Under the pieces are notes generated by a model. It saw only the letters and a list, made by a program, of their open reading frames with translations. It was not told the DNA's origin and did no database searches. From the IMG/VR virus record IMGVR_UViG_3300042892_000699: a DNA stretch of 64,000 nt; one strand, written 5' to 3'. The DNA comes from a virus. Its lineage: Duplodnaviria; Caudoviricetes. A program made the position numbers and the translations under genes. Each line of letters starts with the position of its first letter. Position 1 is the stretch's first letter. Of the stretch, positions 1-34,461 are shown piece after piece.

Positions 1-2
1 AT

Positions 3-110
3 CAGCTTCTTCTGCCCGAGCACATGAACGCAGAATATTTTGACAACTGGGAAAATCAAATGCGTAAGATTCCGCAATTTAATATTGTGGACTGCGTAAG
101 ATTTATGTAA
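3..110 (+). CDS. 3' end of a CDS truncated by the window edge
   Basis: Open frame QLLLPEHMNAEYFDNWENQMRKIPQFNIVDCVRFM ends in TAA at 108-110, directly abutting the ATG at 111. Confidence 0.5.
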   Translation, partial: QLLLPEHMNAEYFDNWENQMRKIPQFNIVDCVRFM

Positions 111-1274
111 ATGGCATTATCATCCTTTCCTACTATAGTAACAAGAGATTTAGTTTTTTGTTACGATATGAACAACACTGGAAAGTCGTGGTTAGGTGCT
201 CCTACGATCAATCGTGTGGCTCCTGCGTGGATAAGTTGGGGAATCGATGGTTCAGGCACAGTAAACATAGGAACTAGAACAATTTTAAGTGACTGGCATT
301 GTAGAATAAATGACTATAATCACAATACTCGACAATCAATTTATGTAACCGGATTATCTGGAAGCATAACTTATACATTTTCAGTAAAATTTAAAAAACT
401 AGAAGGTGCTCCAACACTGCGGTTTCAACTACAGTCTTATAATGGCGGCACATTTTTAGGCTCAGTGTTTCCTACTACAGTTCAATTGGGACTAACTGAT
501 AAAGAAGGTTGGCAAACTGCATTTTTCTCTTACACAACTTCAGCAGGTGCTGATCGAGTGTTATGGTTCATGCAAGACGGGGATGATTATGTCACCTACA
601 CTCATTCTTTCGAACTCAAAGAACCGCAGTGTGAACAACAATCTTTTGTTACACCTTTTGTATCAGGAACAAGATCAAATACGCAGGCCATTGTAGATCT
701 TACCGGTAATAATATCATCACCGCAACCTCACTAACTTACAATAGCGGCGGTACGTTTAGTTTTGTTAGGGCTAATTCAAATTATATAAACATTTCTGCA
801 AACACAAACACCCGTTTTCAAAATAGTCAGCAAACATGGTCGGCCTGGATAAACATTGCAAGCTTCGGACCCAACGGATATAGCGAACTTTATAATAACG
901 GCGGAAATCTAGGTGCTTCAATACAATGGCGAGCAAATGCAATTGGTTTTTTTATATATAATGGTGCATATTTAGACTATGCAGTTTCAGTAACAAATGC
1001 ACTGAATACCTGGATGAACATAACTTGTGTTATAGATAATGTTGCAAGAGTTATGCTTGTATACAAGAATGGTGCATTGGTAGGAACAAGTCCGCAATGG
1101 GCAACATATACGCTACCTAACGGCAGCGTACATATTGGTGGGAACTTTGCAACAGGAAATGGTGGAGATGTTACTCAAGGCAACATTCCCACTGTTCAAC
1201 TTTATAATCGAGCATTGAGTGCAGTTGAAATTAAACAAAATTTTAACGCACATCGAGGAAGGTATAATTTATAA
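111..1274 (+). CDS. LamG/concanavalin-A-like lectin protein with inserted CBM-like domain (paralog 1); putative virion adhesin
   Basis: N-terminal LVFCYDMNNTGKSWLGAPT; C-terminal LamG signature WMNITCV...VYKNG...IGG...VQLYNRALSAVEIKQNFNAHRGRY. Confidence 0.75.
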   Translation: MALSSFPTIVTRDLVFCYDMNNTGKSWLGAPTINRVAPAWISWGIDGSGTVNIGTRTILSDWHCRINDYNHNTRQSIYVTGLSGSITYTFSVKFKKLEGAPTLRFQLQSYNGGTFLGSVFPTTVQLGLTDKEGWQTAFFSYTTSAGADRVLWFMQDGDDYVTYTHSFELKEPQCEQQSFVTPFVSGTRSNTQAIVDLTGNNIITATSLTYNSGGTFSFVRANSNYINISANTNTRFQNSQQTWSAWINIASFGPNGYSELYNNGGNLGASIQWRANAIGFFIYNGAYLDYAVSVTNALNTWMNITCVIDNVARVMLVYKNGALVGTSPQWATYTLPNGSVHIGGNFATGNGGDVTQGNIPTVQLYNRALSAVEIKQNFNAHRGRYNL

Positions 1275-1275
1275 T

Positions 1276-2439
1276 ATGGCAATAGGACATTCTGCATCAG
1301 TTGTTGCTTCTGACCTAGTGTTTTACTACGACATGTTAAATCCTAAGTCGTGGTTAGGTGCTCCTACGACTAATCGTTGTAGCGCAAACACTATTCATAC
1401 CAACTGGAATAACAGCGGAACAGCAACATGGATAAACGACGATCCTTATATTCCTAGGCTATATCCGGATATTATAACAGTGTCTATGACAAAAGACACT
1501 GTAGGGAACAGCCACATTGCTCTCGGTTATGCAACATTGGCAGCAAATACAGTTTATACAGTAAGCGTACACGTTTATATTCCCAGTAATACAACTACAT
1601 TGGCCAGCAGTCAACCATACATAAGACCGTTTCCTGGAAACTTTAATGCAGCAAATTTAGAATACAACGGCAGTAGTGACTGGAATATTTGGCCTAAAGA
1701 TAGATGGATCAGAATTAGTAAAACATTTACCAACTCTGCAACAGATACTGAAATGTATATTTCCTGTTACTTAGATAATGCAGGCAGCAAAATTGCATTT
1801 ACTGCACCTATGGTTGAAGCTAACTCTTTTGCTACACCTTATACTCCTGTCAGTACTTCGAGATCAAATACGCAGGTAATAACAGATTTAATGAATCGAA
1901 GAACAATTACTGCAACCAATTTAACTTATAACAGTAATAATACTTTTAGTTTTAACGGGTCGACTAATAATATTGTTACAAACTCATTTACTTCATCGTT
2001 AGATTTTACAATCAGCATCTGGGTAAGGATGACTTCTGGTCTAGTGGCACAACAACGTCTTGTATCTTCCGATTCGGCAGGAACTTTTACAATTTACTGG
2101 TCAGGCAGCGACTTTGGATTTCATTACAATCCGTTAGACGCATCGCCACCGTCGACTGCTACTGCGGCCACAGGGTTAAGTTACTCTATAAATAGTTGGT
2201 ATAATTTAACAGCAACAAATAATGCAACGGCAGGCACTAGATTTTATGTCAATGGTGTTCTACGAGCAGTTGGAGAAACAAGTGTTCCTCTTGCAGGAAA
2301 TATAACTTTTGGTTCAGACCGTACAAATTCATTACATGCTGCTGCACAAATTCCAGTCGCACTGATTTATAATAGAGTACTAACCGCTGACGAAGTTAAT
2401 AAAAACTTTAATGCACTAAGAGGAAGATATTCAGTATGA
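1276..2439 (+). CDS. LamG-like lectin protein (paralog 2)
   Basis: Start moved to ATG 1276 (MAIGHS), which matches the paralog N-termini; LVFYYDMLNPKSWLGAPT ... IYNRVLTADEVNKNFNALRGRY. Confidence 0.75.
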   Translation: MAIGHSASVVASDLVFYYDMLNPKSWLGAPTTNRCSANTIHTNWNNSGTATWINDDPYIPRLYPDIITVSMTKDTVGNSHIALGYATLAANTVYTVSVHVYIPSNTTTLASSQPYIRPFPGNFNAANLEYNGSSDWNIWPKDRWIRISKTFTNSATDTEMYISCYLDNAGSKIAFTAPMVEANSFATPYTPVSTSRSNTQVITDLMNRRTITATNLTYNSNNTFSFNGSTNNIVTNSFTSSLDFTISIWVRMTSGLVAQQRLVSSDSAGTFTIYWSGSDFGFHYNPLDASPPSTATAATGLSYSINSWYNLTATNNATAGTRFYVNGVLRAVGETSVPLAGNITFGSDRTNSLHAAAQIPVALIYNRVLTADEVNKNFNALRGRYSV

Positions 2440-3650
2440 GTGTGAGAGCAAATCCTTACATCGAAACTAATGGTTTGGTATTTTGTTATGATATGAATAA
2501 CACTAAATCATGGCAAGGTGCTCCTACGACTAATCAGTTTACGTTGCCCACGGCAGATGTAAACGGTTTTGGAGTTCAAAATAGTACATTTACTAGAATT
2601 CGAACTGGAATGTATGGCGGATACGATATTAAGCCAACTGACTACGTTTGGAGATATAATATCTCTGGTAACGATTGTCCGTATCATGGGTGGGATATCC
2701 CAACACCTAGCGGATCCGTAGTTACATTTTCTTTCGATTACTTTGTAGATTTATCCTGTGTTAACTATCCGTCTAATAACTATCTAGCAAATTTTGAAAA
2801 TGCAGGCAGTGGCGTAGGTGGCGCTTATGGAGACCCTACCCCCTCAATTAAAGGAGTTTGGAAAAGAGCCTATTTCACTTCAACTGCAACCGCAACAGGT
2901 AATTCTAGATGCCTGCTGTATCCGGGAGCATGTGGAACAAGATTAGCAGATTCTGGGTTTATACTTTATAAAAATCCACAGGTTGAATTTAATGCTCCAG
3001 GGGGAATTCCTACGCCGTTTGTTGCAGGCTCTCGGTCGGCTACACAGGCAGTTTTAGATCTTACCAACAACAATGTTGTTACTGTAAATGCATTAACTTA
3101 TAACAGCGACGGTACTTTTAGCATTAATAACATTGCAGCATCGTCTTTAAGTATTCCAGATTCTTCTATTACAAGACCTACCTCACTAACAATATCAGCA
3201 TGGGTAAGGATGAATGTCTACAATCCGTTAAATGATTTTGATGGATCATATCCTACCATTGCATGGAAATGTAATTCAGATAATTCAGGCGGCGGCGGGT
3301 CTTATGGATTGAGCCTCGCAGCTCCTAATCCTAGATTTGCAGTTTCTTCTACACAATTAATCAGTGCGTCACCGTTAACATATGGTGTTTGGGTAAACCT
3401 TGTTGGAACGTATTCTGCAGGCGGAGCAATGGTGCTTTATAGGAATGGAGTAGTAGATGCTAGCACAACGGGGCCTGCGTCAATTCCTTATTCTGCACAA
3501 GTATTTTCAGTAGGATCTAGGATATTCAGTGGAGTATATCAGTATCCGTGGAATGGCAGCATTGGATTAGTGAAACTTTACAACCGAGCATTGACCTCGT
3601 CAGAAGTTCGTCAGAACTTTAATTCAATTAAAGGGAGGTATGGACTATGA
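2436..3650 (+). CDS. LamG-like lectin protein (paralog 3)
   Basis: LVFCYDMNNTKSWQGAPT ... LYNRALTSSEVRQNFNSIKGRY; ATGA overlap with the upstream gene. Confidence 0.75.
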   Translation: MSVRANPYIETNGLVFCYDMNNTKSWQGAPTTNQFTLPTADVNGFGVQNSTFTRIRTGMYGGYDIKPTDYVWRYNISGNDCPYHGWDIPTPSGSVVTFSFDYFVDLSCVNYPSNNYLANFENAGSGVGGAYGDPTPSIKGVWKRAYFTSTATATGNSRCLLYPGACGTRLADSGFILYKNPQVEFNAPGGIPTPFVAGSRSATQAVLDLTNNNVVTVNALTYNSDGTFSINNIAASSLSIPDSSITRPTSLTISAWVRMNVYNPLNDFDGSYPTIAWKCNSDNSGGGGSYGLSLAAPNPRFAVSSTQLISASPLTYGVWVNLVGTYSAGGAMVLYRNGVVDASTTGPASIPYSAQVFSVGSRIFSGVYQYPWNGSIGLVKLYNRALTSSEVRQNFNSIKGRYGL

Positions 3651-4792
3651 GTGTGTCAAGCGGCCCGTTATTAACTACTAACGGATTGGTGTTTTACTAC
3701 GATATGACAAATACACAAAAGTCGTGGCAAGGTGCTCCTACGACTAATGTACTTACAAACACTAATCTAGACACAGGATGGAGTCAAGGTTATAATACAA
3801 GTATTATTATAGGTGATACTTCAGCTGGGTCTCCCCCGGGAGTCGAATCTCAAGTAGTGTCGTTTATCGACTCGGATAATAATGGCTCGGGTTATTGGTA
3901 TTCCTACGGTAACTTTGCTCCTCAAGCAGACAGCACTACGTACTCTGTATCTGTATGGGCAAGGACTGTAGGAGCTGATTGGGTTATACAACCCTATACC
4001 GCAGATAATTCCGAAGCAAATCGAGTTTGGTTAACAGCTAAAACAGTAACAGGTAATGGTGTTTGGCAAAGATTAGAATGGCCTAATGCATTTACTACAG
4101 GGGTTGGATGGGACTCGGACTCGTTAAGTTTTCAATTTAATTCAATACCTGCAGGACAACGATGCTGGTTGTGCGCACCGCAAATGGAACCTTTAAGTTA
4201 TTGCACACCGTTTGTAAATGGAACAAGATCTAGTTCACAGGCATTGTTAGATCTAACAGGTAGGAATACTCTTACTGCGGCAAACATGGTATATTCTAAC
4301 AATATATTCACGTTTAACGGCGGTACTTCTTGCTTTGATCTTAATAATAACGCTCTAATATCGGGTACACAAGACTTTACAATCGAAGCAGTGTACTATA
4401 CTTCTGCAACAGACACTGCTGGGAGAGAAATTATAGGAAACTATGGCACAGGTGCTACTGCTAATACTCTATGGTTTGCCACCCACGGTCTGTGGATCAA
4501 CGGAGCAACTCCGTATCACGCAGGCAGTCCACTAAGAAACGGCACATATTATACAGCGGCAACTCGCTTGGGCAGTGCAACTTCTTTATATAAAAACGGT
4601 GCTTTGGAACTAACAGGAACAAACTCTACTTCCATTGCAGTAGGACAAAACTGGCGTATAGGTAAAGATGTAGGTGGTGACGGAGAACCTTTTTTGGGCA
4701 ATATCTACATGGTAAGAGTCTACAATCGGGCACTTAATGCAGGTGAAATTTATCAAAACTACAATGCTGTACGCACTAGGTACGGTATATAA
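3647..4792 (+). CDS. LamG-like lectin protein (paralog 4)
   Basis: LVFYYDMTNTQKSWQGAPT ... VYNRALNAGEIYQNYNAVRTRY; ATGA overlap. Confidence 0.75.
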   Translation: MSVSSGPLLTTNGLVFYYDMTNTQKSWQGAPTTNVLTNTNLDTGWSQGYNTSIIIGDTSAGSPPGVESQVVSFIDSDNNGSGYWYSYGNFAPQADSTTYSVSVWARTVGADWVIQPYTADNSEANRVWLTAKTVTGNGVWQRLEWPNAFTTGVGWDSDSLSFQFNSIPAGQRCWLCAPQMEPLSYCTPFVNGTRSSSQALLDLTGRNTLTAANMVYSNNIFTFNGGTSCFDLNNNALISGTQDFTIEAVYYTSATDTAGREIIGNYGTGATANTLWFATHGLWINGATPYHAGSPLRNGTYYTAATRLGSATSLYKNGALELTGTNSTSIAVGQNWRIGKDVGGDGEPFLGNIYMVRVYNRALNAGEIYQNYNAVRTRYGI

Positions 4793-4819
4793 CAAGAATA
4801 CACTAAAATAGTTTAACGA

Positions 4820-4825
4820 TAAATA
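4820..4825 (+). promoter_or_regulatory. T4 gp55-type late promoter motif TAAATA
   Basis: TAAATA upstream of tail fibre 1; the same motif recurs before most structural genes. Confidence 0.6.
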
Positions 4826-4847
4826 TAAGATCGGAATACGTTAAACT

Positions 4848-7800
4848 ATGGCACTATCAGACCGCGACATTATTATTACGCCCAACAGAGGCGCAAGTTC
4901 AGAACCTATAATCAGCCTTAGAGGCGGAGATGCATCGTCTAGTGCAACTATGACGATGCGAATAGTTAATTCCGGAACTGTTTCAACACTGAGTTTTGAA
5001 GGTACATCGGGGCAGCTGTTTGCTGTATCTGATACATTTGCTGGAACTATATTTTCAGCGAACGATATTTCAGGAATTCCCAGCATCGAAGTATTAGACA
5101 ACGGTGCAGTAAAACTAGCAGAATACAACGGTCAAGTACAGATCGGCGGCGCAACTAATGCAAGTAATGCAACTTCTACAGCAACTGGTGAACTGAGAGT
5201 AGTAGGCGGCGCAGGTGTATGGAAAGATCTAGTTGTTGGCGGAAGTATTACCGTAGCAGGATCAATAAATGCTGCTTCAATATCTGGTACAGTTACTAAT
5301 TCAACTAACGTCACTGTTACTAACGACACAACAAACGCCAGTACACACTATCTTACCATGGTGTCGGGCACTAGTGGAAACTTACCTATCAAAGTTGACG
5401 GTACTGGTTTAGTATGGATTCCTAGTACAAACAGATTAGGAGTTGCAAACACTACACCTAGTTTTTCTCTTGATGTAGGTCCTCAAACTGGTCCGCTACA
5501 AACTGTGGCTAGATTTGGTAATCCTGGAAGTGATATCCTTATAACTCATGCCAGTGCTATTATCAGTCATAATGCTTATTACAACGGTGCCTGGCTAAGG
5601 TCTGCTGCCGGTTACGCAAGTCAGGTTGAATTACAAAACGGTCTATTCAACTTCCAAACAACTCCGACTACTGCCGCAGCCGGAAGTAGTATTACTGACT
5701 GGACTTCAAGATTGATGATTTTAAACAACGGCGACGTTGGTATAGGAACAGCAAGTCCGGCAGCAACTCTGCACATTGTTAGATCTTCAAATCCCTATAC
5801 TAGAATACAAACAGGCGGTGGATCATATTCGTATCTACAATTAGATGACGGTAGTTCGAACGGATACTTGATTAAAAACGTTTCTGCCGGTACAGGAAAT
5901 AATGCTCTTCCAGGAGCACTGTATACATACACTGACAACAGTAAGGCATTTCAACATATTCATAGCGGAACCCCATTGTTTACAATCCTATCTACGGGGT
6001 TTGTAGGTATCGGAACAACAGCACCTGCATATAAATTTAGTGTAAACACAGCGGCTGACGTGTGGCATGCACAGTTTGGTACCAGTGGTGGTAAGCAGGT
6101 AAGAATTGGCGGCAGTACAACTAACGGTAGCGTTATTGGCGCATACAACACCGACGATAACTCTAGCCCAGCAAGTTTATTACTACAGAGAGATGGCGGT
6201 AACGTAGGTATCGGTATAGCAGCCCCTAGTGTAAAATTACATGTTGTTGGTTCAAGTATTTTGTCAAACAATACCGGTATCGACCCTGATGCATATACCA
6301 ACACAGTGGTAGCAGGAGCAATTGCCGACGGCAGTGGTTGGGGAGTAAGCTCTGCAATTGGCGGAAATGCAGGCACCGGTGATTCATGGGCGATTGGTCA
6401 TAATGGTAATTACCTATATTATGGTGTAGGTAACGGTGCAGCAGATAATACATTTGCAACCTATATGGTTACTGGAGGAACTGGAAGGCACCTGTGGCTA
6501 ACTCCGGCTTCGGGAGGTAGTGTTGGTATCGGAGTTGCAGAAGGTACAACTCCCGGTCGTAAGTTAGATGTAAACGGCACTACTAACATCAGCAGTCACA
6601 TTACACAAGGTACTTTAGTTTCTAGACCGAACGTAACATGGGGTGCAAGTGGATCTAGTACCGGTGCAGTGGTTATTAAGTTCCCTGGCGGAACCGGCAA
6701 CTACGGTATGGTCCATGTGGTTATTGACATCTATACATATGACGGTGAACATGCAAGTACTGTAATTGTAGGTGGACACAACTGGAACAGTGCATGGTAT
6801 AATTTTGGAGCTACATTAGTAGGTAGTTATAGTAAGGGTGTGCGTGTTGCATTCAAAGACGGTCAGTATGCAATTGTCTTGGGTAATAATACCAGCACAT
6901 GGAGTTATGGTCAGGTAATAGTTAGAAAAATTCAAAACGGTAGTTACTATAGTGGTGTTATGGATCTTGGTGGTACCTATAGTATTGCACAGGATGCATC
7001 AGCTGAATCGTATACTTATATTTCAGGCAATTTAATTACAGCAGGAGCAGGGTCTAGCGGAGGTTGGAATTCTAGTAATGATGGTTCCGGATCTGGTCTA
7101 GATGCTGACTTGTTAGACGGTATTGATAGTTCTAGTTTTGTTAGAGACGATGCAACATCTAACGGTTACATTGATTTAAACGGTGGTACACAAAATTCAC
7201 CAACTGACGCTACTATATACGCAACTGCTACTAATAACAACGACTGGTTATTAAGACTTAATGCACAGAACTCAAGTAAAACTGAATATGGTGCTTATGT
7301 TCAAATACCGAGTGCTGCAACTTATGCGTGGGCAGTTTATTCGGATAGTAACACATGGAACTGGCGAATTAACGGAGCAGGACAATCGTTCTCCCCTATC
7401 TATTACGATGTCAACGACACTGCCCGATTTATGGACATGAACGGCAACAATACAAGTCAGATAGGTAATTTGAGATTAAATGGTGACTGGTCTACAGGAT
7501 CGCACGCTGAACAGTTAACTGTTCGAGGAACTTATGCTAGTATGTGTTTAAGAGCCACTAATGGTAATCAACCCTATTGGTTATTCCATAATGACTCTAC
7601 CTCGGCCTTGTTATTTTATGGAGGCCGAGGTGCTGTAGATGGAAGTTCCTGGGATTGGGGATTTAGGATTTATGGAGCGTCTGATGGTCTTTATGGAGAA
7701 GGTCGTAACAGCCTGCGAGCACCTATATTCTACGATACCAATGATACTAATTATTATGGTGACTTTGCAAGCAGTTCTAGTTTTAATAATGTAGCCGTAA

Positions 7801-9416
7801 GAGGTGATTTAAATTCAGCCAGCGTATCTAACGGAACTTTAACACTATGGAGTTCTGGAGGAACTTCGACTTCTAGAATACAATTTAAGAATCAAGGTTC
7901 GATAGGATGGGGATTACATGGCGCACTTACAGAAGGCTATGCAACCTACTGGGATATGGATACAAATGGACGTGGTTGGATTTTTAGAAATGCAACGTCC
8001 GGAGCAAACGTAGCCAGTATTGGAAATAGTACCGGTGTTACAACACTGGGTTCATCCTGGGGAACTGGTACGACTCACGCTCAATTAAACGTGCAGCAGG
8101 GTACAAGTAGTGCTATAACATATAGAGACATTGACTTAAAAGGAGGGTGGAGTGGTGGTGAAGGTCACGCTATCAGTGCCACATATGGTTCAAGTGCAGT
8201 TAATCTAGTCGGTCAACAAGTATTCCAACACGACGGTCCTGGATCGAGAATTAAGTGGGGTAGATTGTATCATAGTGGAGATGTATCTGCATATCCTATG
8301 CAGTTAATTTCTGAGAACAATGCTGGTCAAGCATATTTAGAAATTAATTCGGGTTCAATGAGAGCCCCATTGTACTACGATCATAACAATACCAGCTTCT
8401 ACATGGATTTTGCCGGCTACAGCAGAATCAATCAACTGACAATAGCTCATGGAAGAACCAACACATCTGAACAACAACCAGTGGGTCATTTTTCGCACAG
8501 CGATGAAGTATTTTCTATAGATCCTAGTTGGACCACAGATCAATTACGTGCTATGTTTAGCGGCAGCACCAACGTAAATTGGGTCGCAGACAGTACAGCA
8601 CCGGGTGGGTACGCTATTTCTCTCGCAGGCGCTATAAATGTAGGTAATACTGTTTATGGTAGCGGTGTTCCTTGGATCGCTGTAGATCAAGACGATATTT
8701 TCTATATGGAAGTATGGATGAAAAACGTGGTCACGCAGAATGGTCACTACATGGGCAGTATCGATTTCGATCATAACTTTAGCTCTCTAGGTGGAAACCC
8801 AGGTAGTTTTGGTTACTGGGTCATGTCAAACAATGCTCCGAGCGTAGGATCTTGGGTTAAGTATACTGGATATATTGGTGGTTTTGGCAGTAGTACTGGG
8901 CAGTTTAAGCCCGGAACAAAATACTGGACACCACAGGCATTGTTTAACTACACAGGCGGCGGCACTTCTTATATATCAGGATGGAAAGCAATCAGAGTGC
9001 GTCATCCAGGAAATAGAACTTTTGCAGGTGAAGTTCGTGCAACCAGTGAAATTACTGCCTACTATGGATCTGATGAAAGACTAAAAGAAAACATTCAACC
9101 TATTGCAAGTCCCATGGCCATGCTCGAGTCTATTAGAGGTGTATATTTTGACTGGACACAGGAACATATACAATCCCGTGGCGGAGAAGATGGTTTCTTT
9201 GTAAGAAAACATGACATAGGTGTTATTGCTCAAGAAGTTGAAGCGATACTACCAGAAATTGTTGCAACTAGACCTGATGGTTTCAAAGCGGTTAAATATG
9301 AGAAGCTGGTTCCGTTGCTGATAGAAGCAATTAAAGATCAAAAATCTACCATAGATCATCTCAGCGCAGAAGTGCAGGAATTAAAAGAATTAGTGCGAAA
9401 AAGTTTAGGAAAATAA
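4848..9416 (+). CDS. Long tail fibre protein with C-terminal intramolecular chaperone (peptidase S74-type) domain
   Basis: 1522 aa, G/S/T/N-rich, with GNVGIGTxxP-type repeats and DADLLDG; C-terminal SDERLKENI...IRGVYFDW...IGVIAQEVEAILPEIV...VKYEKLVPLLIEAIK plus coiled coil. Confidence 0.9.
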   Translation: MALSDRDIIITPNRGASSEPIISLRGGDASSSATMTMRIVNSGTVSTLSFEGTSGQLFAVSDTFAGTIFSANDISGIPSIEVLDNGAVKLAEYNGQVQIGGATNASNATSTATGELRVVGGAGVWKDLVVGGSITVAGSINAASISGTVTNSTNVTVTNDTTNASTHYLTMVSGTSGNLPIKVDGTGLVWIPSTNRLGVANTTPSFSLDVGPQTGPLQTVARFGNPGSDILITHASAIISHNAYYNGAWLRSAAGYASQVELQNGLFNFQTTPTTAAAGSSITDWTSRLMILNNGDVGIGTASPAATLHIVRSSNPYTRIQTGGGSYSYLQLDDGSSNGYLIKNVSAGTGNNALPGALYTYTDNSKAFQHIHSGTPLFTILSTGFVGIGTTAPAYKFSVNTAADVWHAQFGTSGGKQVRIGGSTTNGSVIGAYNTDDNSSPASLLLQRDGGNVGIGIAAPSVKLHVVGSSILSNNTGIDPDAYTNTVVAGAIADGSGWGVSSAIGGNAGTGDSWAIGHNGNYLYYGVGNGAADNTFATYMVTGGTGRHLWLTPASGGSVGIGVAEGTTPGRKLDVNGTTNISSHITQGTLVSRPNVTWGASGSSTGAVVIKFPGGTGNYGMVHVVIDIYTYDGEHASTVIVGGHNWNSAWYNFGATLVGSYSKGVRVAFKDGQYAIVLGNNTSTWSYGQVIVRKIQNGSYYSGVMDLGGTYSIAQDASAESYTYISGNLITAGAGSSGGWNSSNDGSGSGLDADLLDGIDSSSFVRDDATSNGYIDLNGGTQNSPTDATIYATATNNNDWLLRLNAQNSSKTEYGAYVQIPSAATYAWAVYSDSNTWNWRINGAGQSFSPIYYDVNDTARFMDMNGNNTSQIGNLRLNGDWSTGSHAEQLTVRGTYASMCLRATNGNQPYWLFHNDSTSALLFYGGRGAVDGSSWDWGFRIYGASDGLYGEGRNSLRAPIFYDTNDTNYYGDFASSSSFNNVAVRGDLNSASVSNGTLTLWSSGGTSTSRIQFKNQGSIGWGLHGALTEGYATYWDMDTNGRGWIFRNATSGANVASIGNSTGVTTLGSSWGTGTTHAQLNVQQGTSSAITYRDIDLKGGWSGGEGHAISATYGSSAVNLVGQQVFQHDGPGSRIKWGRLYHSGDVSAYPMQLISENNAGQAYLEINSGSMRAPLYYDHNNTSFYMDFAGYSRINQLTIAHGRTNTSEQQPVGHFSHSDEVFSIDPSWTTDQLRAMFSGSTNVNWVADSTAPGGYAISLAGAINVGNTVYGSGVPWIAVDQDDIFYMEVWMKNVVTQNGHYMGSIDFDHNFSSLGGNPGSFGYWVMSNNAPSVGSWVKYTGYIGGFGSSTGQFKPGTKYWTPQALFNYTGGGTSYISGWKAIRVRHPGNRTFAGEVRATSEITAYYGSDERLKENIQPIASPMAMLESIRGVYFDWTQEHIQSRGGEDGFFVRKHDIGVIAQEVEAILPEIVATRPDGFKAVKYEKLVPLLIEAIKDQKSTIDHLSAEVQELKELVRKSLGK

Positions 9417-9419
9417 AGA

Positions 9420-12400
9420 ATGGCAAATTCAGATCGCGACATTAGAATTATACCGGATAGGGGTTCCTCTACCGATCCGGTTATATACTTCACGGGTGCT
9501 GATAGCCTATCTAGCGCAACCATTACTCTAAGAGTTTATAATTCTGGTACAGATGCTACTCTAAGTTTTGAAGGTGATGTAGGACAGTTATTCTCTATCA
9601 CGGACAGTACGTTTGGTCCTGTGTTTGCAGTCAATGACGTTACAGGTATTCCCAGCATAGAAGTATATGACACTGGTGAAATTAGATTTGCACAGTACAA
9701 CGGATATCTCAATGTAGCAGGTACAGCAAATGCAACTTCAACAAACACAGGCGTTGTAAGAATTGCTGGCGGAACAGGTATAGCAAAGGATCTATTCGTT
9801 GGTGGAAACATCAACGTCGGCGGAACTATTACAGCATCTAGTGTTTCTGGAACAGTTACTAACTCCACAAACGTAACTATCACTAACGATGCTTCAAATG
9901 CCAGCACCCATTATTTGACTTTTGTTTCTGGAACCAGTGGTAACTTGCCTATCAAAGTTGATAATTCAGCATTAGTATGGGTCCCTAGTACAAATAGATT
10001 GGGTATCGGTACAACCAGTCCCACAAGCAGATTACATGTTGCGGGCGCAGGTAACACAACTGGCGGAAATATTCACCTAGGAGACGATGTTAACGGTACA
10101 GCAAAGTGGACTTACATAACAGGAGCGCATTATAACGGAGCTACTAACCTTACTGGCTTCTCATTAATCGGCGGATTATCTGATGCAACTTCAAATAAAG
10201 TTGTAATTGGTGGTAACATTTACGAATCTAACCCTGCAACTGAAATTCAGTTCTGGACACATACTGCAACTACACACGCAACTGGCGGTAGTCAGCGGAT
10301 GGTCATTGACACTAACGGAAACGTCGGTATCAATATTACGTCACCGACAAGTAGATTGCACGTTCGAGAAGCAGGCGCAACCATATCAAGTGGTAATGCT
10401 ATTAATGGTACCTCAATGAGAGGTATCATGGTTGACAACACTAACAATGATGATACTTCAGTGGGTCTATGGTTTAGCACAGGTCCAGGAAGTCACTGGT
10501 CTGGTATCAGTGGTCAGCGATCAAATTCAGCAGCTAACTGGGGAACAGATCTACGTTTCTATACACACGAAGACGCAACTAACGATTTAACATATAGTCG
10601 AGAAAGACTGCGTATCAGCTCTAACGGTCTTGTAGGCATCGGAACCAGTGACTTCTCATACACCACTTCAGATAATACTGCGTTAGTAGGTAGTTTTACC
10701 AACAATAGATTGTTTGTAAACGGTAGTATTCAACTGCTAGGAAACAATGATGCTATTGTATTTGGTCGCGGCACAGGCACATTCCTAAAAGACGAAGAAC
10801 TAGGTTTTGGTTGGGGCGGTGGCTGGTGGATGAATGATGCTACATATCTGCGTGTAAAAGCCTACAAGCACGTCTATAACGAAAATATCTACAGCGGTTC
10901 TAGATTTCAAAACTTTTCAACTAGTTATAATGCACCTAACATGTTTATGCCACGTTGGGAGGACCCAAACTTTGCATATGGCATGTCATCGAATGACAGT
11001 AGCGTCTATTGGATGCAGGCAAAGTATTACGGTTTAGGTAATAACGATCGAGGATTTAGAGTATTAGATTCTAATAGTGGTGCGGTAAGAATGTCAGTTG
11101 CTGATAAGATTACTACACACCAAAACACATTCTATCGTACCTTCAACAGTTACACAGGCTCTGACAACGGTCCAATGAAGACCTGGGACGGTGTACTTAC
11201 TGCCGGTTCGGATTATAGTGGAGCCGCAACTTATACGGTTATTGAAACTAATGTTCCGCAAGACAGCTACATGATGGGCGGCTTTACCATTAACTGGTTT
11301 GAGAACTATTCTAGTAATAACGCTAAAACTAGTATTAATTTAGGTGGTTACTGGAATGCAGAAAGCAATGGCGGTTTTCAAGGCTGGGAGTATACTAGCA
11401 CTAATCCTAATATTGTTCCTACTATTCAGGTAGGTAGAAATATCAGTACTGGTAGGACAGCAATTATATTAACGCACTTTAATTCTAGTTATCCTATTAT
11501 TTTAGCAAGAGACTTATGGTTAGGTTATAGTACTGGTGATTACGATTATGGATCAGGCTGGTCGATCCTACAAACCAACAGTTTGTCAGCTTATACAAAC
11601 TTAGATACTGTTGTTCCTAGGACTTCAGTTGCTGGTAGTTCTGGTTCAGGTTCTGGATTAAATGCTGACCTGTTAGACGGCATCGACAGCACAGGATTTT
11701 GGCGTCAGAGTGGTAGTTGGGCAGGTGATTTAGCTTCTAACGGGTACACAAGAACTAATGGTGTTACTACTGGAGCCGGAGCCGAGTTTGTAGTTTTAGA
11801 AAGTGGTGGTCGAGGATACACATTAGTTGATGGCTCATATTACGCCTACGAAGGTGGCGGATTTTATTCTTCAAGTAACTCTGCGTTTGGTACCTTAAGA
11901 GGTTTTTATTCTGATTCTTCTTCTAGTGTACTGTTCAACGCTACAATAAAAGCACCTAGGTTTGAGGACAGCAATGATACATCATATTATGTAGATCCTG
12001 GCAGTGACTCGAGACTCAACGGTAGATTAACTGTAGCAGCTGGGCACGGTGATTCATCACTTAGAGTGCATCTGAACGCCGCAGACAACGGTGCCGGTAC
12101 AGGTATATCCGCTTTACAAATGTGGTGCAGTGAACCAGGTAATACATGGGACTGGGCAGGCTTTGGTTTCAACGTTGATAACAGTCAGAACACTAACATG
12201 CCTGTCTATTACTTTGGTAGACCAAATCCTAGTTTTGGACAAGCGTACATGAGAATGGGTACAGGCGGACAGTGGTATTTCTATACCGCTACCGCAGGTA
12301 CAGGAGATTATTCAGGTACTAGATATACTCACATGTATCTAGCACCAAATAACGGTGTTGAAACATATGGTAGATTGTATAACGATACTCGTGTCGATGC

Positions 12401-13997
12401 ACCTATATTCTATGACAGTAATGATACTACATATTATGTTAACCCTGCAGTCGACACCCGACTTGGAGGCCAGGTTAAAATAGCAGGTAACGCATCGGGC
12501 AGCGCAGGTAATGCACTTATTGTAGGCAGCACAACTGTTAATTTTTCATTACAAGATACTAATCTAAGACCTATTCTACACGCTCATGGTCAGTACCCTG
12601 CATTAACTTTAAACCATACTGTAACATCAAATACCAATCACGGACCCACAATACAATTTACCTGCAACGGCGTCGGTAATCAGTTTGTTATTGGAACAGG
12701 TGGAGCCGGAACATTCCTAGATATGGGATATTCTAGCGCAGGCGATTGGAATCCACACAATGGTATTGCTGGATACAACGGTGTTACTTTCTTTAGGGCA
12801 AATACTAGCGGAAATATAGGAATCGGCGCTCAGGGCGACTGGGGAGCATTAGGAGGCGGTGATCCAGGGTACGCTATTGATACTAGGGGAACATTATATA
12901 ATAATACTGACATTCGTGCTCCAATTTTCTACGACAGCAACAATACCGGTTACTATGCTGACCCCAACAGTACATCAAACTTTGTAGGGCTAACAGTCGC
13001 TAACAGAATTACAGGAAGCGTTAGCGGATATGCAACTAGAATTGATGATGCACAAAGAACTGCATTTACTGTAGGTGGCAATACAAGTAATTTTTATCCT
13101 GTAGTATTTCAACTTGGTTCAGGACCAACTGTACAACAATACGGCGAGTTTATGATTGAACGTGGTGGATACGACGACCCTGGATACACCGGCGTTAACT
13201 TCTCTACTATGAACGCACGTTTTAGTCACAAGTCCAGCGGCTGGGGCTTTGGTTCTACATATGAAAATTGCGAATCCTTGTATCAAAACGTTCAATTGAT
13301 TGCAAACTGGCAACAGGTCAGCGAAAGCAGTAGAATGATTATTTGGCTTCGTGGCGCAACAATTTATAACTTTTACAATATTGTAGGTAATACAACATTG
13401 TTTAATGGTAACTCTGCTGGTGGAAACATTGTTGAATCTAACCCATCATACTACACTTACACATTTACACCAACAACTACAATTCAACCTAAAGCACAAC
13501 ACAGTAAATATTTCAATAGTGGTGCTATGTTTGATGGTAGCTGCAGGATTCTTAGCTTAGGGTTGGGCACTAATGCATCGGGTACAACGGGTGAAATTAG
13601 AGCAACTAATGAAATTACAGCTTACTATTCAGATCGTAGGTTAAAAACCAACGTTCAAGTTATCGAAAATGCCGTAGACAAAGTAAAAAAATTAACTGGT
13701 ATTACTTATACAGGGAACAATATTGCAGGAGAACACGGGTACGACATCAATAAAAGACAAGCAGGTGTATTTGCAGATGAAGTTGAAAGCGTATTACCAG
13801 AAATTGTTAGGCCAGCTCCGTTTGATATTGATGACGACGGTGACAGCAAGTCAGGTGAATATTATAAAACAGTACAGTATGAAAAATTAGTTCCGTTATT
13901 AATTGAAGCAATTAAAGAACAACAAAAAACCATTGAAAAACAAAGTCAACGCATCAATGACCTTGAAGATAGAATAAATAAAAACAAGTTAATCTAA
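9420..13997 (+). CDS. Second long tail fibre protein with S74-type chaperone domain; paralog of 4848-9416
   Basis: Shares the ~200-aa N-terminus (ASTHYLTxVSGTSGNLPIKVD); C-terminal SDRRLKTNV...GVFADEVESVLPEIV...VQYEKLVPLLIEAIKE. Confidence 0.9.
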   Translation: MANSDRDIRIIPDRGSSTDPVIYFTGADSLSSATITLRVYNSGTDATLSFEGDVGQLFSITDSTFGPVFAVNDVTGIPSIEVYDTGEIRFAQYNGYLNVAGTANATSTNTGVVRIAGGTGIAKDLFVGGNINVGGTITASSVSGTVTNSTNVTITNDASNASTHYLTFVSGTSGNLPIKVDNSALVWVPSTNRLGIGTTSPTSRLHVAGAGNTTGGNIHLGDDVNGTAKWTYITGAHYNGATNLTGFSLIGGLSDATSNKVVIGGNIYESNPATEIQFWTHTATTHATGGSQRMVIDTNGNVGINITSPTSRLHVREAGATISSGNAINGTSMRGIMVDNTNNDDTSVGLWFSTGPGSHWSGISGQRSNSAANWGTDLRFYTHEDATNDLTYSRERLRISSNGLVGIGTSDFSYTTSDNTALVGSFTNNRLFVNGSIQLLGNNDAIVFGRGTGTFLKDEELGFGWGGGWWMNDATYLRVKAYKHVYNENIYSGSRFQNFSTSYNAPNMFMPRWEDPNFAYGMSSNDSSVYWMQAKYYGLGNNDRGFRVLDSNSGAVRMSVADKITTHQNTFYRTFNSYTGSDNGPMKTWDGVLTAGSDYSGAATYTVIETNVPQDSYMMGGFTINWFENYSSNNAKTSINLGGYWNAESNGGFQGWEYTSTNPNIVPTIQVGRNISTGRTAIILTHFNSSYPIILARDLWLGYSTGDYDYGSGWSILQTNSLSAYTNLDTVVPRTSVAGSSGSGSGLNADLLDGIDSTGFWRQSGSWAGDLASNGYTRTNGVTTGAGAEFVVLESGGRGYTLVDGSYYAYEGGGFYSSSNSAFGTLRGFYSDSSSSVLFNATIKAPRFEDSNDTSYYVDPGSDSRLNGRLTVAAGHGDSSLRVHLNAADNGAGTGISALQMWCSEPGNTWDWAGFGFNVDNSQNTNMPVYYFGRPNPSFGQAYMRMGTGGQWYFYTATAGTGDYSGTRYTHMYLAPNNGVETYGRLYNDTRVDAPIFYDSNDTTYYVNPAVDTRLGGQVKIAGNASGSAGNALIVGSTTVNFSLQDTNLRPILHAHGQYPALTLNHTVTSNTNHGPTIQFTCNGVGNQFVIGTGGAGTFLDMGYSSAGDWNPHNGIAGYNGVTFFRANTSGNIGIGAQGDWGALGGGDPGYAIDTRGTLYNNTDIRAPIFYDSNNTGYYADPNSTSNFVGLTVANRITGSVSGYATRIDDAQRTAFTVGGNTSNFYPVVFQLGSGPTVQQYGEFMIERGGYDDPGYTGVNFSTMNARFSHKSSGWGFGSTYENCESLYQNVQLIANWQQVSESSRMIIWLRGATIYNFYNIVGNTTLFNGNSAGGNIVESNPSYYTYTFTPTTTIQPKAQHSKYFNSGAMFDGSCRILSLGLGTNASGTTGEIRATNEITAYYSDRRLKTNVQVIENAVDKVKKLTGITYTGNNIAGEHGYDINKRQAGVFADEVESVLPEIVRPAPFDIDDDGDSKSGEYYKTVQYEKLVPLLIEAIKEQQKTIEKQSQRINDLEDRINKNKLI
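13975..13980 (+). promoter_or_regulatory. Late promoter motif TAAATA
   Basis: Upstream of ORF 14014, followed by an AGGAG RBS. Confidence 0.55.
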
Positions 13998-14013
13998 AGG
14001 ATTAGGAGAAATT

Positions 14014-14364
14014 ATGTCAATTACGTATACCTGGAAAATTACAGGATTAAAGCAAAATAGCAACGGCGAAGTTGTACACGCCACATGGCAAAAAACTGGT
14101 ACAGATTCTGATGGACATTCTGGAGTCTTTACGGGAGCAACTCCTTTTACAATACCAGAAGGTGCAGAACTTATTCCTACTCAGACACTAAGTGAAGATG
14201 ATGTTATGGGCTGGATCAAGGCTATAGTTGTAAACGATTACGAACGACATGTTAATGGACAGATCCAGAAACAGATCGATCAACAAAAATCCGTGTTAGC
14301 AGATGTTAAGTTATCATGGATGCCTGAACCCGCAGCAGCGCCTATGGCACCGCCAACTGAATAA
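14014..14364 (+). CDS. Small tail-fibre-associated protein (assembly or accessory), function unknown
   Basis: MSITYTWKITGL...F-type protein directly after the fibre genes; AGGAG RBS. Confidence 0.55.
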   Translation: MSITYTWKITGLKQNSNGEVVHATWQKTGTDSDGHSGVFTGATPFTIPEGAELIPTQTLSEDDVMGWIKAIVVNDYERHVNGQIQKQIDQQKSVLADVKLSWMPEPAAAPMAPPTE

Positions 14365-14429
14365 TACATAGTCACATTTTAATATAAACAAGGAAATGGG
14401 CTCATAAATATCAGGGCCTCAAGGACATA

Positions 14430-14660
14430 ATGCCAGGAAATTTACCAGCAACAGGATCGGAACTATCATTCGGAAGAGTCAACAGGGCGTATACTAACAA
14501 TACACCTGGTGCTGCCGGCAATGCTCCGTCTGGCGGCCAGAATATTAGGTTAAGTGCTATCCTAGGTAATAATGCTACTTACGGTATTAACCAAGCAGCC
14601 GGAACCCAGATTAGATTCTCTCAAACTTTCGGCGGCCGCTCATATCCTTTTACATATTAA
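14430..14660 (+). CDS. Small Gly/Asn-rich virion-type protein
   Basis: TAAATA at 14405-14410 and an AAGGA RBS upstream; 76 aa. Confidence 0.55.
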   Translation: MPGNLPATGSELSFGRVNRAYTNNTPGAAGNAPSGGQNIRLSAILGNNATYGINQAAGTQIRFSQTFGGRSYPFTY

Positions 14661-14661
14661 C

Positions 14662-15135
14662 ATGAAACCAAACAACATTGCAAAACTATTAGAATCAGTA
14701 AACGAATGCCCTAGCAAATGGGAATTAGATAACGTAATTTGGGCAGATAGAGGAACAAATCCAACAATTTTAAAAAAATTCCTGGAAAGAATCCAAACTC
14801 TATCAGAGTCTGGTGCTACATTAACACCCGGCGAAGCCTCTGAACTAGAACGTCTAACAGATTTACTAGACGACATGGACATCGATGAATGTTCTGAACT
14901 TTTAAATTTAAATGAAGATGCTTCTAAAGAATCTTTTATTGAGAACTTGGCAAGAACCAGCGCAATTGAAGTTCTTACAAATGAAAAATTGAGCTTTGAA
15001 ACCATGACAACCGCTTGCAAACTAAGTCCTAATGACTTTATACTGTGTGCTAAGAGGACCCAAGATTTAATCAATGCTATCCACGGATTGGTAATCAAGG
15101 GCGAAACACTTAGTAACGATGTAGCAGGCGCATGA
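14662..15135 (+). CDS. Hypothetical protein
   Basis: Start moved to ATG 14662, just after the upstream stop; ATGA overlap with the downstream GT. Confidence 0.6.
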   Translation: MKPNNIAKLLESVNECPSKWELDNVIWADRGTNPTILKKFLERIQTLSESGATLTPGEASELERLTDLLDDMDIDECSELLNLNEDASKESFIENLARTSAIEVLTNEKLSFETMTTACKLSPNDFILCAKRTQDLINAIHGLVIKGETLSNDVAGA

Positions 15136-15788
15136 AAAAGAACTCAGTATTTTCTTCAAGTAAATGGTCAACTAAAAAGGGAAAAATAGCAGTATGTATT
15201 CCTACACGGGATACACTGCATTCTGCCCATGCAATGAGCTTACTTGAAATGGTAAAATTTAATACCATGAATGATTTAGACACACATGTGTTTATGGATG
15301 CAAGCACAATCTTACTTACACAACGTGAGAGACTTGCAACAATGGCCTTAGATTTAGGGGCTGAATATATGCTGTGGCTAGATAGTGATATAGTATTTCC
15401 AGCAACCACTGCTGTTAGACTGTTAGCTCACAATCAACCTATAGTTGCAGGAAATTACGTTAGACGACAATTTCCCTGTAAAGGTGTTGCTTATGAAACA
15501 ATAGGCGACTGGGAAAATCCCTTAGACTTTAAAGTTCAAGATAAACTTGTGGACGTAGAAGGAATAGGCATGGGTTGTGTATTAATGAAAACTGAAATAT
15601 TCAATCAACTTCCGAAACCTTGGTTTGAATTTGGATGGAGTCCTGCATCAAATGATTTCTTAGGTGAAGATATGTTACTATGGCAAAAAGTCAGTGCAGC
15701 CGGGTACACTGTCAAAGTTGATACAGCACTAAGTCAAGAACTACGCCACTTAGGAACTTACGGTTTTGGTCCTAGCGACCTAGACTAA
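15132..15788 (+). CDS. GT-A fold (family 2-like) glycosyltransferase
   Basis: IAVCIPTRD N-terminal strand, LWLDSDIVFP DxD motif, GIGMGCVL and GEDML motifs. Confidence 0.75.
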   Translation: MKKNSVFSSSKWSTKKGKIAVCIPTRDTLHSAHAMSLLEMVKFNTMNDLDTHVFMDASTILLTQRERLATMALDLGAEYMLWLDSDIVFPATTAVRLLAHNQPIVAGNYVRRQFPCKGVAYETIGDWENPLDFKVQDKLVDVEGIGMGCVLMKTEIFNQLPKPWFEFGWSPASNDFLGEDMLLWQKVSAAGYTVKVDTALSQELRHLGTYGFGPSDLD

Positions 15789-16220
15789 CTCTAATATCAA
15801 TTCTATTTTTGCTCTAATAATTTTATTATTGAGACTATTCTTTACACCCTGGTGTAAAGGTTTTGGCCAGTTGTTAAAACTGCACCACGCATATCCTGCA
15901 TGTTCGTTATTTAGATGTGGTTGAAATTCTTTTTCTACAATCACAACATAGGTATTATACTGAAATTTTTGATCGTTGCTGGTAAACAACTCAAGAGGTA
16001 CAGTTTTTTTAATACCAGATACTTTTCCAACTTCTTCTTCAATCTCTCGTTGTAATGCTTCAAATGGCGTAGCATCAGTAGGCTCTTTCTTCCCGCCCAC
16101 TAACCCCCATGTTCCTGCAGTTTTTCCTTGAGTTCTCTGTAGCAAGAGAAATCGTTTGGTATCTCTTGCTAAAAATAAACCGCCGCTACAAATAATTTGA
16201 TTTAGAGTACTAGTCGCCAT
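15780..16220 (-). CDS. Nudix hydrolase
   Basis: Nudix box WGLVGGKKEPTDATPFEALQREIEEEVG. Confidence 0.85.
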   Translation of the reverse strand: MATSTLNQIICSGGLFLARDTKRFLLLQRTQGKTAGTWGLVGGKKEPTDATPFEALQREIEEEVGKVSGIKKTVPLELFTSNDQKFQYNTYVVIVEKEFQPHLNNEHAGYAWCSFNNWPKPLHQGVKNSLNNKIIRAKIELILELV

Positions 16221-33393: not shown

Positions 33394-34461
33394 ATGTCAA
33401 AGGCCTTCGATATTTCGAAGTTCCGCAAGTCTATTACGAAAAGTATTGATGGCTTGGGAATTGGGTTTAACGACCCCACCGATTGGATTTCAACCGGTAA
33501 CTACGCCCTAAACTATCTTATCTCGGGGGACTTCTACAAAGGAGTTCCACTAGGCAAAGTAACAGTTTTTGCGGGCGAATCCGGTGCAGGTAAATCATAT
33601 ATCTGCTCTGGTAACATTATTAAAGCGGCACAAGAACAAGGTATTTTTGTTGTCTTAGTTGACAGCGAAAACGCCCTTGACGAAAAGTGGTTGCTTGATC
33701 TAGGTGTTAATACAAGTGAAGATAAACTTCTAAAACTTAACATGGCTATGATTGACGACGTGGCAAAAACCATTAGTGAATTCATGAAAGAATACAAAAC
33801 CATGCCCGAAGATTCGCGTCCTAAGGTATTATTTGTAATTGATTCATTGGGTATGTTGTTGACTCCTACAGACGTTAATCAGTTCGAAGCAGGCGAGATG
33901 AAAGGTGACATGGGTCGTAAGCCTAAGGCACTTACTTCATTGGTTCGTAACTGTGTAAACATGTTTGGCTCGTGGAATGTAGGTATGGTTTGTACAAATC
34001 ACACATACGCTAGCCAGGATATGTTTGATCCAGATGATAAGATTAGTGGCGGGCAAGGATTTGTCTATGCAAGTTCTATTGTAGTTGCTATGAAGAAACT
34101 CAAACTGAAAACTGACGCTGATGGTAATAAGACTACAACTGTTAACGGTATTCGTGCAGCTTGTAAGATTATGAAAACACGTTATGCAAAGCCGTTCGAG
34201 TCAGTGCAAGTAGAAATTCCGTATACAACTGGCATGAGTCCCTACAGCGGATTGGTTGATTTGTTCGAAGCTAAAAATATGTTGAAGAAAGAAGGCAACA
34301 GTCTTGTTTACACAACAGTCGATGGTGAAATAATCAAACAATTCCGTAAGGCTTGGGAAAAGAACGAAAAAGACGGGCTAACCATTATGATGGAAGATAT
34401 TTCCAAGAATGGAGAAAAAGCCTTAGATCCAATAGCACTTGAAGACAATGAGGAAGCATAA
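33394..34461 (+). CDS. uvsX: RecA-like recombinase UvsX
   Basis: FAGESGAGKS, VDSENALD, VIDSLGML, GDMGRKPKAL, TNHTY..QDMF...ISGGQG..YASS. Confidence 0.95.
   Translation: MSKAFDISKFRKSITKSIDGLGIGFNDPTDWISTGNYALNYLISGDFYKGVPLGKVTVFAGESGAGKSYICSGNIIKAAQEQGIFVVLVDSENALDEKWLLDLGVNTSEDKLLKLNMAMIDDVAKTISEFMKEYKTMPEDSRPKVLFVIDSLGMLLTPTDVNQFEAGEMKGDMGRKPKALTSLVRNCVNMFGSWNVGMVCTNHTYASQDMFDPDDKISGGQGFVYASSIVVAMKKLKLKTDADGNKTTTVNGIRAACKIMKTRYAKPFESVQVEIPYTTGMSPYSGLVDLFEAKNMLKKEGNSLVYTTVDGEIIKQFRKAWEKNEKDGLTIMMEDISKNGEKALDPIALEDNEEA

Follow-up and report, generated by a model that had tools for sequence, protein, structure and literature searches.

At one end of a 64,000-nucleotide (nt) stretch of viral DNA (Duplodnaviria; Caudoviricetes; IMG/VR record IMGVR_UViG_3300042892_000699), which at its full length we call the window, lie four paralogous genes for proteins of the LamG type. 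They follow one another head-to-tail on the + strand as g1 (111..1274, 387 amino acids (aa)), g2 (1276..2439, 387 aa), g3 (2436..3650, 404 aa) and g4 (3647..4792, 381 aa) and are ~30% identical in aa sequence overall. The start of g2 is taken as the ATG at 1276; the list of open reading frames (ORFs) had stretched it to a GTG at 1219. Each protein opens with a common N-terminus, LVFxYDMxNxxKSWxGAPTxN, continues with a middle of 152–165 residues that cannot be aligned between the paralogs, and returns to a common linker, TPFVxG[TS]RSxxQAxxDLT, that leads into a C-terminal half matching Laminin_G_3. The original prediction, made from the letters of the window alone, regarded the four as adhesins whose middle domains are exchanged at nucleotide-identical junctions. 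We have found that exchange at both ends of the middle domain is recorded in relatives of this array, and that the LamG body takes part in it at least as freely as the insert.

The C-terminal halves of all four ORFs match the Pfam family Laminin_G_3 (PF13385) with scores of 53.6–77.1 bits against a gathering cut-off of 27.6 (E 1e-14 for g1); the inserts match no Pfam family at E values up to 0.1. From 70 sequences an AlphaFold2 (AF2) model of g1 was built that has a mean local confidence (pLDDT) of 86.3 and a predicted template-modelling (TM) score, pTM, of 0.80. This predicted model superimposes on solved LamG-type domains with Z of 19–21 and a root-mean-square deviation (rmsd) of 2.5–3.2 over 187–205 aligned residues. 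Domain 4 of AbnA (5hon_A, 206 aa), for example, aligns over 188 residues (Z 20.4, rmsd 2.6) that span model residues 10–379. Because contiguous LamG domains are spread in this way over 10–379 with ~188 residues aligned, the strand at residues 14–19 is placed in the LamG sandwich and ~180 residues are looped out. The same division is seen in insert-free paralogs of 230–250 aa in relatives, which match profile positions 1–33 and then 200–390, the seam reading KSYPGSGTTWTDLSGN. The model and the insert-free paralogs together support the arrangement first proposed, an N-terminal strand, an insert and the LamG remainder with the insert in a loop: a LamG jelly roll, its first strand N-terminal, with a predicted carbohydrate-binding-module (CBM)-like sandwich of ~150 residues nested in its first loop.

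The looped-out insert of g1, M1 (213..668), when modelled by itself with AF2, gives a beta-sandwich like those of CBM4/16/22 with a pLDDT of 93.7. Its structural matches reach Z of 11–13.3 and a TM-score of ~0.65 over 123–146 aligned residues at 8–18% identity, the best being the C-terminal domain of CBA120 TSP4 (Z 13.3) and a hyaluronan-binding module (Z 13.2). Compared with the M1 family by hhalign, the other three inserts give probabilities of 54–67% and E of ~1e-4. M2 (1375..1857) matches weakly over 112 columns (probability 67%, E 5e-5), M3 (2535..3029) matches in its C-terminal part alone, and M4 (3749..4222) with a probability of 54%. The four inserts are probably, as far as profile comparison can tell, distant relatives of one fold. 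In related arrays the first LamG loop may hold a Gly_rich_2 domain of 250–450 residues or nothing at all (L018 3441–4991, L025 9503–11656), and the LamG seam therefore accepts unrelated inserts.

At the left seam, where LamG strand 1 ends and the chain leaves for the insert (K-S-W-L-G-A-P-T in g1), the 14-nt sequence AGGTGCTCCTACGA occurs exactly once in each paralog, at positions 194, 1356, 2516 and 3730, and the 64-kb window holds no further copy with up to one mismatch allowed. The junctions, all on the + strand, extend over 183..207 in g1 (core 194–207), 1345..1375 in g2 (core 1356–1369), 2511..2535 in g3 (core 2516–2529) and 3725..3748 in g4 (core 3730–3743). The core encodes G-A-P-T as GGT GCT CCT ACG in g1–g4. 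In the window Gly is most often encoded by GGT and Pro by CCT; GCT is the second-choice Ala codon and ACG is a rare Thr codon (5–9%). Exact identity extends to 25 nt between g1 and g2 (p 0.00025) and to 24 nt between g3 and g4 (p 0.0024), just as had been claimed from inspection, and none of the six gene pairs has a longer exact match than the left patch (14–25 nt), the g1/g3 and g1/g4 runs not being significant singly (p 0.35 and 0.09).

Away from this patch the synonymous sites are saturated. Paralog pairs agree at ~50% of the codons for identical residues, and of the 20 other columns that are invariant and at least four-fold degenerate, just one has the same codon in all four genes. If codons are drawn independently at the frequencies of the window, four genes coincide over four codons in a row with a probability of ~1e-5. 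We also drew all synonymous codons of g1–g4 afresh 20,000 times, with the protein alignment left as it stands; none of the simulations reached the observed 14-nt four-way run, the simulated maximum being 12 nt. The synonymous identity at the left junction is therefore far above what codon bias would give. A second G-A-P-T, written AAGGTGCTCC just like that of the junction, lies inside M1 at window 403–412. The M1 family keeps G-x-P-T almost without exception, and this internal copy may be due to chance or be a relic of an older seam.

The right seam was expected to carry two further repeats, and both are present, at lower significance. The 16-mer AGATCAAATACGCAGG is found exactly at 672 and 1861, in g1 and g2, and is barely above chance (p ~0.01 for this pair, ~0.06 over six pairs). 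TAGATCT occurs in g1, g3 and g4 and is not significant when taken alone; g1 and g3 share a longer, 11-nt stretch around it, TAGATCTTACC, at 694–704 and 3055–3065. The right junction of g1 spans 651..714 (+ strand, T-P-F-V-S-G-T-R-S-N-T-Q-A-I-V-D-L-T, repeat families D4 and D10) with the 16-mer at 672–687, and that of g2 spans 1840..1887 (+) with the 16-mer at 1861–1876. The corresponding positions in g3 and g4 are 3012..3075 and 4205..4268, both on the + strand.

A search with g1 for proteins of near its length gave 1,072 related proteins, and at E<=1e-30 there are ~2,100 cluster representatives, some of them giant multi-LamG proteins. Natural chimeras are plain among these. P0047 and P0042 join an N-terminus and M1-type insert like those of g1 (61–63% identity) to an unrelated LamG body, and P0015 has the LamG body of g1, C1 (81% aa, 78% nt identity), behind an unrelated insert. 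P0015 (L018 6001–7896), which comes from a more distant phage, has in addition a C-terminal extension of ~240 residues past the LamG body, for which no family match was seen. An IMG/VR set, L001–L016, at ~30% identity, is too far removed to reveal chimeras, but it does display variation in the codons and paralogs that lack the insert.

The clearest cases come from two contigs, L026 (genes a1–a4) and L023 (genes b1–b3), that are syntenic with the window in having a fibrinogen-like gene upstream of the array and S74 fibres downstream. With each gene split into an N-terminal strand (N), an insert (M) and a LamG body (C), the window reads M1-C1, M2-C2, M3-C3, M4-C4; L026 reads M1-C3, M2-C2, Mx-Cx, M3-C4; and L023 reads M1-Cy, M2-C2, M3-C4. 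Modules in common are 82–99% identical in aa and 81–94% in nt sequence, with other modules at a background of 20–47%. The second gene is colinear in all its modules (a2 and b2 are orthologs of g2), and others are re-combined. Thus a1 (N1-M1-C3) consists of M1 at 98.7% aa identity and C3 at 84.5%. In a4 (N4-M3-C4) an N4-like strand is joined to M3 (91.5%) and C4 (93.1%), which is a full insert swap relative to g4, and b3 (N3-M3-C4) has N3 with M3 (88.5%) and C4 (91.0%). The insert of g3 is therefore found in a4 and b3 (92% and 88% aa identical, respectively) joined to the LamG body of g4, its own LamG body is found in a1, and neither L026 nor L023 has a counterpart of M4. Module by module, nt identity between the window and L026 varies from 81.8% to 93.9%, which indicates separate histories and suggests that a wider gene pool has contributed besides rearrangement within one genome.

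The ends of the BLAST segments place the joints close to the seams. On the left they fall at 2533 and 3747, each 4 nt beyond the 14-mer, of g3 and g4 respectively: the homology of window 1194–2533 to L026 ends at the left junction of g3, and that of a4 ends at 3747 in the left junction of g4. In the right-hand zones the ends are at 681, 763, 787, 3042, 3059, 4205 and 4219. Homology to P0015 starts at 681, that of C3 to a1 at 3042, and that of C4 at 4205 (a4) and 4219 (b3), and M3 ceases to match a4 and b3 at 3059.

Three-way informative sites refine these crossovers almost to the nucleotide. The gene a1 changes from g1-type to g3-type inside GTAGATCTTACC, the 11-nt stretch common to g1 and g3 that contains TAGATCT, which maps the crossover within 694–704. 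On the left, a4 changes from g4-type to g3-type within TCN-TGG-NNN-GGTGCTCCTACN-ACT-AAY, that is, inside the identical left patch, where it passes from N4 to M3. On the right, a4 and b3 change from g3-type to g4-type between GCTGGT and AGATCT, after the glycine of G-TRS, in one common event. The prediction that relatives would carry chimeric combinations of insert and flank broken at the named sites is thus confirmed in a1, a4, b3 and P0015. The three-gene array of L023 equals that of the window minus 3059–4219, as would result if g3 and g4 had crossed over unequally at their right junctions, with either polarity.

Exchange of this kind extends across the family. Among the 117 members that could be split into modules (the pairs are not phylogenetically independent, so that the counts describe rather than test), 163 pairs reach 80% identity or more in their inserts. 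Of the 163, 26 do so in their LamG bodies too, and in 125 the bodies fall below 60%. Conversely, of 39 pairs that reach 80% or more in the LamG body, 13 carry unrelated inserts. The change points lie from −10 to +40 residues around the [ST]RSxxQ of the right junction, a spread which arises because the conserved stretch continues past the junction. Within the g1 subfamily it is the insert that is conserved and its LamG partner that varies. Insert and LamG body are almost unlinked across the family. Insert swapping as originally conceived is therefore one part of what has occurred: inserts are exchanged, but so, at least as freely, are the LamG bodies.

We consider it likely that these observations reflect homology-guided shuffling of modules, of the kind known from the T-even adhesins and taking place at linkers that are conserved for their structure, and not a dedicated diversification device. 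The two seams, KSW-x-GAPT-x-N where the chain leaves LamG strand 1 and PFV-x-G-[TS]RS-x-x-Q-A-x-x-DLT where it re-enters at strand 2, would be structural parts of the LamG domain and would be kept in every paralog for that reason; being conserved, they would offer the sole usable nucleotide homology between modules that cannot otherwise be aligned. Homologous or microhomology-guided recombination at the seams could re-assort N strand, insert and LamG body over evolutionary time, through exchange between tandem paralogs (by unequal crossover or short-patch conversion) or between co-infecting relatives. Of the products, those broken at domain borders alone would fold and so survive selection. 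The recombination machinery is presumably the phage's own, of T4 type. A RecA/UvsX-like recombinase gene (33394..34461, + strand, PF00154, E 1.5e-14) is present in the window, next to a gp32-like gene (32369–33379), as the proposal that UvsX serves the exchange would have it; the gene stands, and its involvement here is presumptive.

Several points weigh against this interpretation or limit its reach. The close syntenic relatives number two, and a4 and b3 represent one shared event. At the site of that event g3 and g4 as they now stand share little microhomology, and the true parents were therefore other alleles. Breaks at domain borders are also expected from selection for foldability alone, so that guidance by homology and functional filtering cannot be separated here. 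The non-independence of the family pairs has been mentioned, and the nested topology is that of a predicted model. As to a role as adhesins, which is putative, the sole hints at a place in the virion come from PHROG, where the label is 'virion structural protein', and from a weak match to a virion protein of S-PM2.

The closest competitor to homology-guided shuffling is that the left patch is an evolved handle, kept identical by recurrent gene conversion or by second-order selection and forming a cassette, independent of reverse transcriptase, that works on ecological timescales. If this were true, new CBM-LamG pairings would arise within a lineage as paralogs crossed over unequally or were converted at the patches, a recombination-based analogue, for jumbo phages, of a diversity-generating retroelement (DGR). 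The four-way identity far above chance speaks for it, as do the crossovers that do land in the patch and the situation in L026. There, three of the four paralogs retain GGTGCTCCTAC[G/A] (a1 keeps the 14-mer, a2 and a4 are one base off and a3 is further off), and close upstream of the patch a3 carries a w4-like tract of very small length. The codons elsewhere tell against it. The L023 orthologs, at ~81% nt identity, read GGA GCT CCT ACG, GGT GCC CCT ACC and GGC GCC CCA ACA, and from this drift it follows that there has been no lasting selection on the nucleotides of the junction. In other phages G[AKR]PT is conserved as protein and its codons are not (GGT GCA CCT ACT, GGG GCC CCA ACT, GGC GCA CCA ACT and more), and the paralogs inside each of L002, L013 and L018 differ mutually in them. 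An exact-pattern scan of IMG/VR for TCNTGGNNNGGTGCTCCTACGA gave a single match, on the unrelated high-GC contig L017, which we take as chance. Synonymous drift in L023 and the other codons of other phages are thus at odds with the view of the junctions as conserved nucleotide handles. The four-way identity is limited to this lineage and is best read as the footprint of recent short-patch conversion or exchange on a motif conserved for its protein.

There is also little sign of a device at work at present. All sampled words of the array are present in each of the 24 listed lake runs (2020–2024). Contigs of four of these runs (2020, 2020, 2023 and 2024; word depths 33–119) each contain one full-length copy with 0 differences to 1–5000 and no joints, a comparison of contigs that is blind to rare variants and low-frequency recombinants and in which some runs may be the source sample. 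In the 22 contigs carrying g1 the neighbours are all alike. Close to the array there is no dedicated enzyme or repeat system: positions 1–16000 hold no pair resembling the template and variable repeats (TR/VR) of a DGR, a reverse transcriptase not having been searched for genome-wide; no inverted repeats or crossover sites were found at the junctions; and the repeat families within 1–16000 are the junction motifs alone (60–81% identity, direct, in frame and on one strand). For a diversification cassette, therefore, nothing dedicated or fast-acting was found, and we think an evolved handle improbable, the best placed of the alternatives as it is. The letter-for-letter agreement of 1–5000 across lake runs, with the source sample possibly among them, points to a phage population that is clonal and persistent.

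It is more doubtful still that the 14-mer is a functional nucleotide element, such as an RNA structure, a translational signal or a protein-binding site, with the breakpoints incidental. The uniform use of the rarer codons ACG and GCT would agree with this, and the anti-Shine-Dalgarno-like CUCCU within it might base-pair with the purine-rich Shine-Dalgarno sequences encoded where each preceding gene ends. That pairing amounts to 4 nt, however; the positions vary freely in the L023 orthologs and in all more distant relatives, and neither a second copy in the 64 kb nor an IMG/VR match other than the unrelated high-GC one exists to suggest a function. Pairing of CUCCU with the upstream Shine-Dalgarno was dropped as a candidate, without a folding test, since the orthologs drift at these sites. 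Least probable of all is that the identity arises from chance and codon bias and the modules from ancient independent fusions: the common GGT and CCT codons, the singly non-significant g1/g3 and g1/g4 runs and the marginal right 16-mer would allow it, but the simulations never reached the four-way run, and modules 82–94% nt identical in different combinations, in syntenic arrays and with sharp switches at informative sites, require recent exchange.

The array lies in the tail-fibre region of an uncultured T4-like myovirus of lake water, with sheath, tube, terminase, gp32-like and RecA/UvsX-like genes further on. A protein identical to that of g1 is encoded on many lake-metagenome contigs, the longest of 376 kb, and the virus is therefore a jumbo phage. 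Megablast of window 1–5000 against a phage collection gave no match. Matches by tblastn are confined to the C-terminal 85–100 aa and are in the cyanophages S-RIM44 and S-PM2, and the nearest phage record, a 17-kb fragment (G001), has no homolog of the array proteins. Within the array, g2/g3 and g3/g4 overlap by ATGA, and in g1, g2 and g3 the codons for a conserved C-terminal (R/K)-G-R-Y (1254–1278, 2418–2439 and 3631–3650) include the Shine-Dalgarno sequence of the gene that follows. The three copies are GAGGAAGG, GAGGAAG and GGGAGG, with the ATG 8–12 nt further on. From these embedded sites and overlaps the array looks translationally coupled.

The neighbours of the array are constant. A gene for a fibrinogen-C-domain protein (PF00147, 244 aa) and an ORF of 63–71 aa are always found upstream of the LamG array, in the phage and in its syntenic relatives; the former lies just upstream of the window start and is found at L022 5054–5788, L023 7060–7791 and L026 1176–1910. 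Directly after the array come two fibre genes of 1,520 aa with Peptidase_S74-type C-termini (window 4848–9416 and 9420–13997). The two are paralogs with conserved ends (71–78% nt identity) and diverged middles, repeating on a larger scale the array's pattern of conserved ends and variable middle.

The host-recognition genes of T4-type phages are described as made up of conserved and hyperplastic segments in the account of Trojet et al. (2011, PMC3157838), citing Tetart et al. (1996, 1998). The likeness to the T-even adhesins is that the chimeras reported here break at two conserved junction motifs. The proteins differ in being LamG domains with a nested CBM-like domain, rather than beta-helical fibres or gp38 with glycine-rich motifs, in having both junctions within one host domain, and in forming tandem arrays of two to nine paralogs; the T-even adhesins are further known from crosses and host-range data, and the present array from sequences. 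A looser likeness is to the PeSLs, intergenic promoter-terminator cassettes that mediate whole-gene shuffling in T4-type genomes, as outlined by Arbiol et al. (2010, PMC2839356). In that outline, as here, short repeats flanking variable modules are recombination substrates in T4-type phages. The array repeats differ from PeSLs in being coding and in frame and in shuffling domains within genes. With DGRs and the invertase shufflons (Gin/Cin/Rci) the array has in common that variation is aimed at receptor-binding-type domains bounded by fixed sequence; it differs in having no TR/VR pair or inverted sites, and its variation is seen between phages and not within the population.

In their folds the two domains also have known counterparts. 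The LamG part resembles PF13385 and other concanavalin A (ConA)-like lectins such as AbnA domain 4 and the HcN domain of clostridial neurotoxins at the level of fold, with a Pfam score above gathering, but its jelly roll is interrupted after strand 1 by a complete domain, and at 14–19% identity function is not transferable. The insert matches in fold the CBM4/16/22 modules and the CBM-type sandwiches of tailspikes and fibres (CBA120 TSP4, 5w6h; Klebsiella K2-2 TSP, 8iq9; Pa193 fibre, 9b45). These are terminal, whereas the array insert is nested in a LamG loop and is without a Pfam match. By fold the M1 model belongs with the galactose-binding-like CBMs (CBM4/16/22/61/70), and carbohydrate binding is accordingly putative for it; binding of glycans by these proteins, with an effect on host range, may be supposed. 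Literature searches on this LamG family in phages found nothing specific. What sets the array apart from the T-even adhesins is the protein family, its nested two-lectin architecture and its tandem arrays; the mechanism is of a known kind, and no new one is revealed.

Chimeras predicted at named sites from raw sequence thus proved to be verifiable in metagenomes. They provide a case of natural domain-level shuffling in genes of the host-recognition type, in which breakpoints known almost to the nucleotide coincide with both seams of a nested-domain protein. Being a large family, with tandem arrays in many uncultured freshwater T4-like phages, these proteins amount to a library of swappable CBM-like and LamG modules whose permissive junctions are known, useful for studies of the co-evolution of lectin pairs and for the design of chimeric binders.

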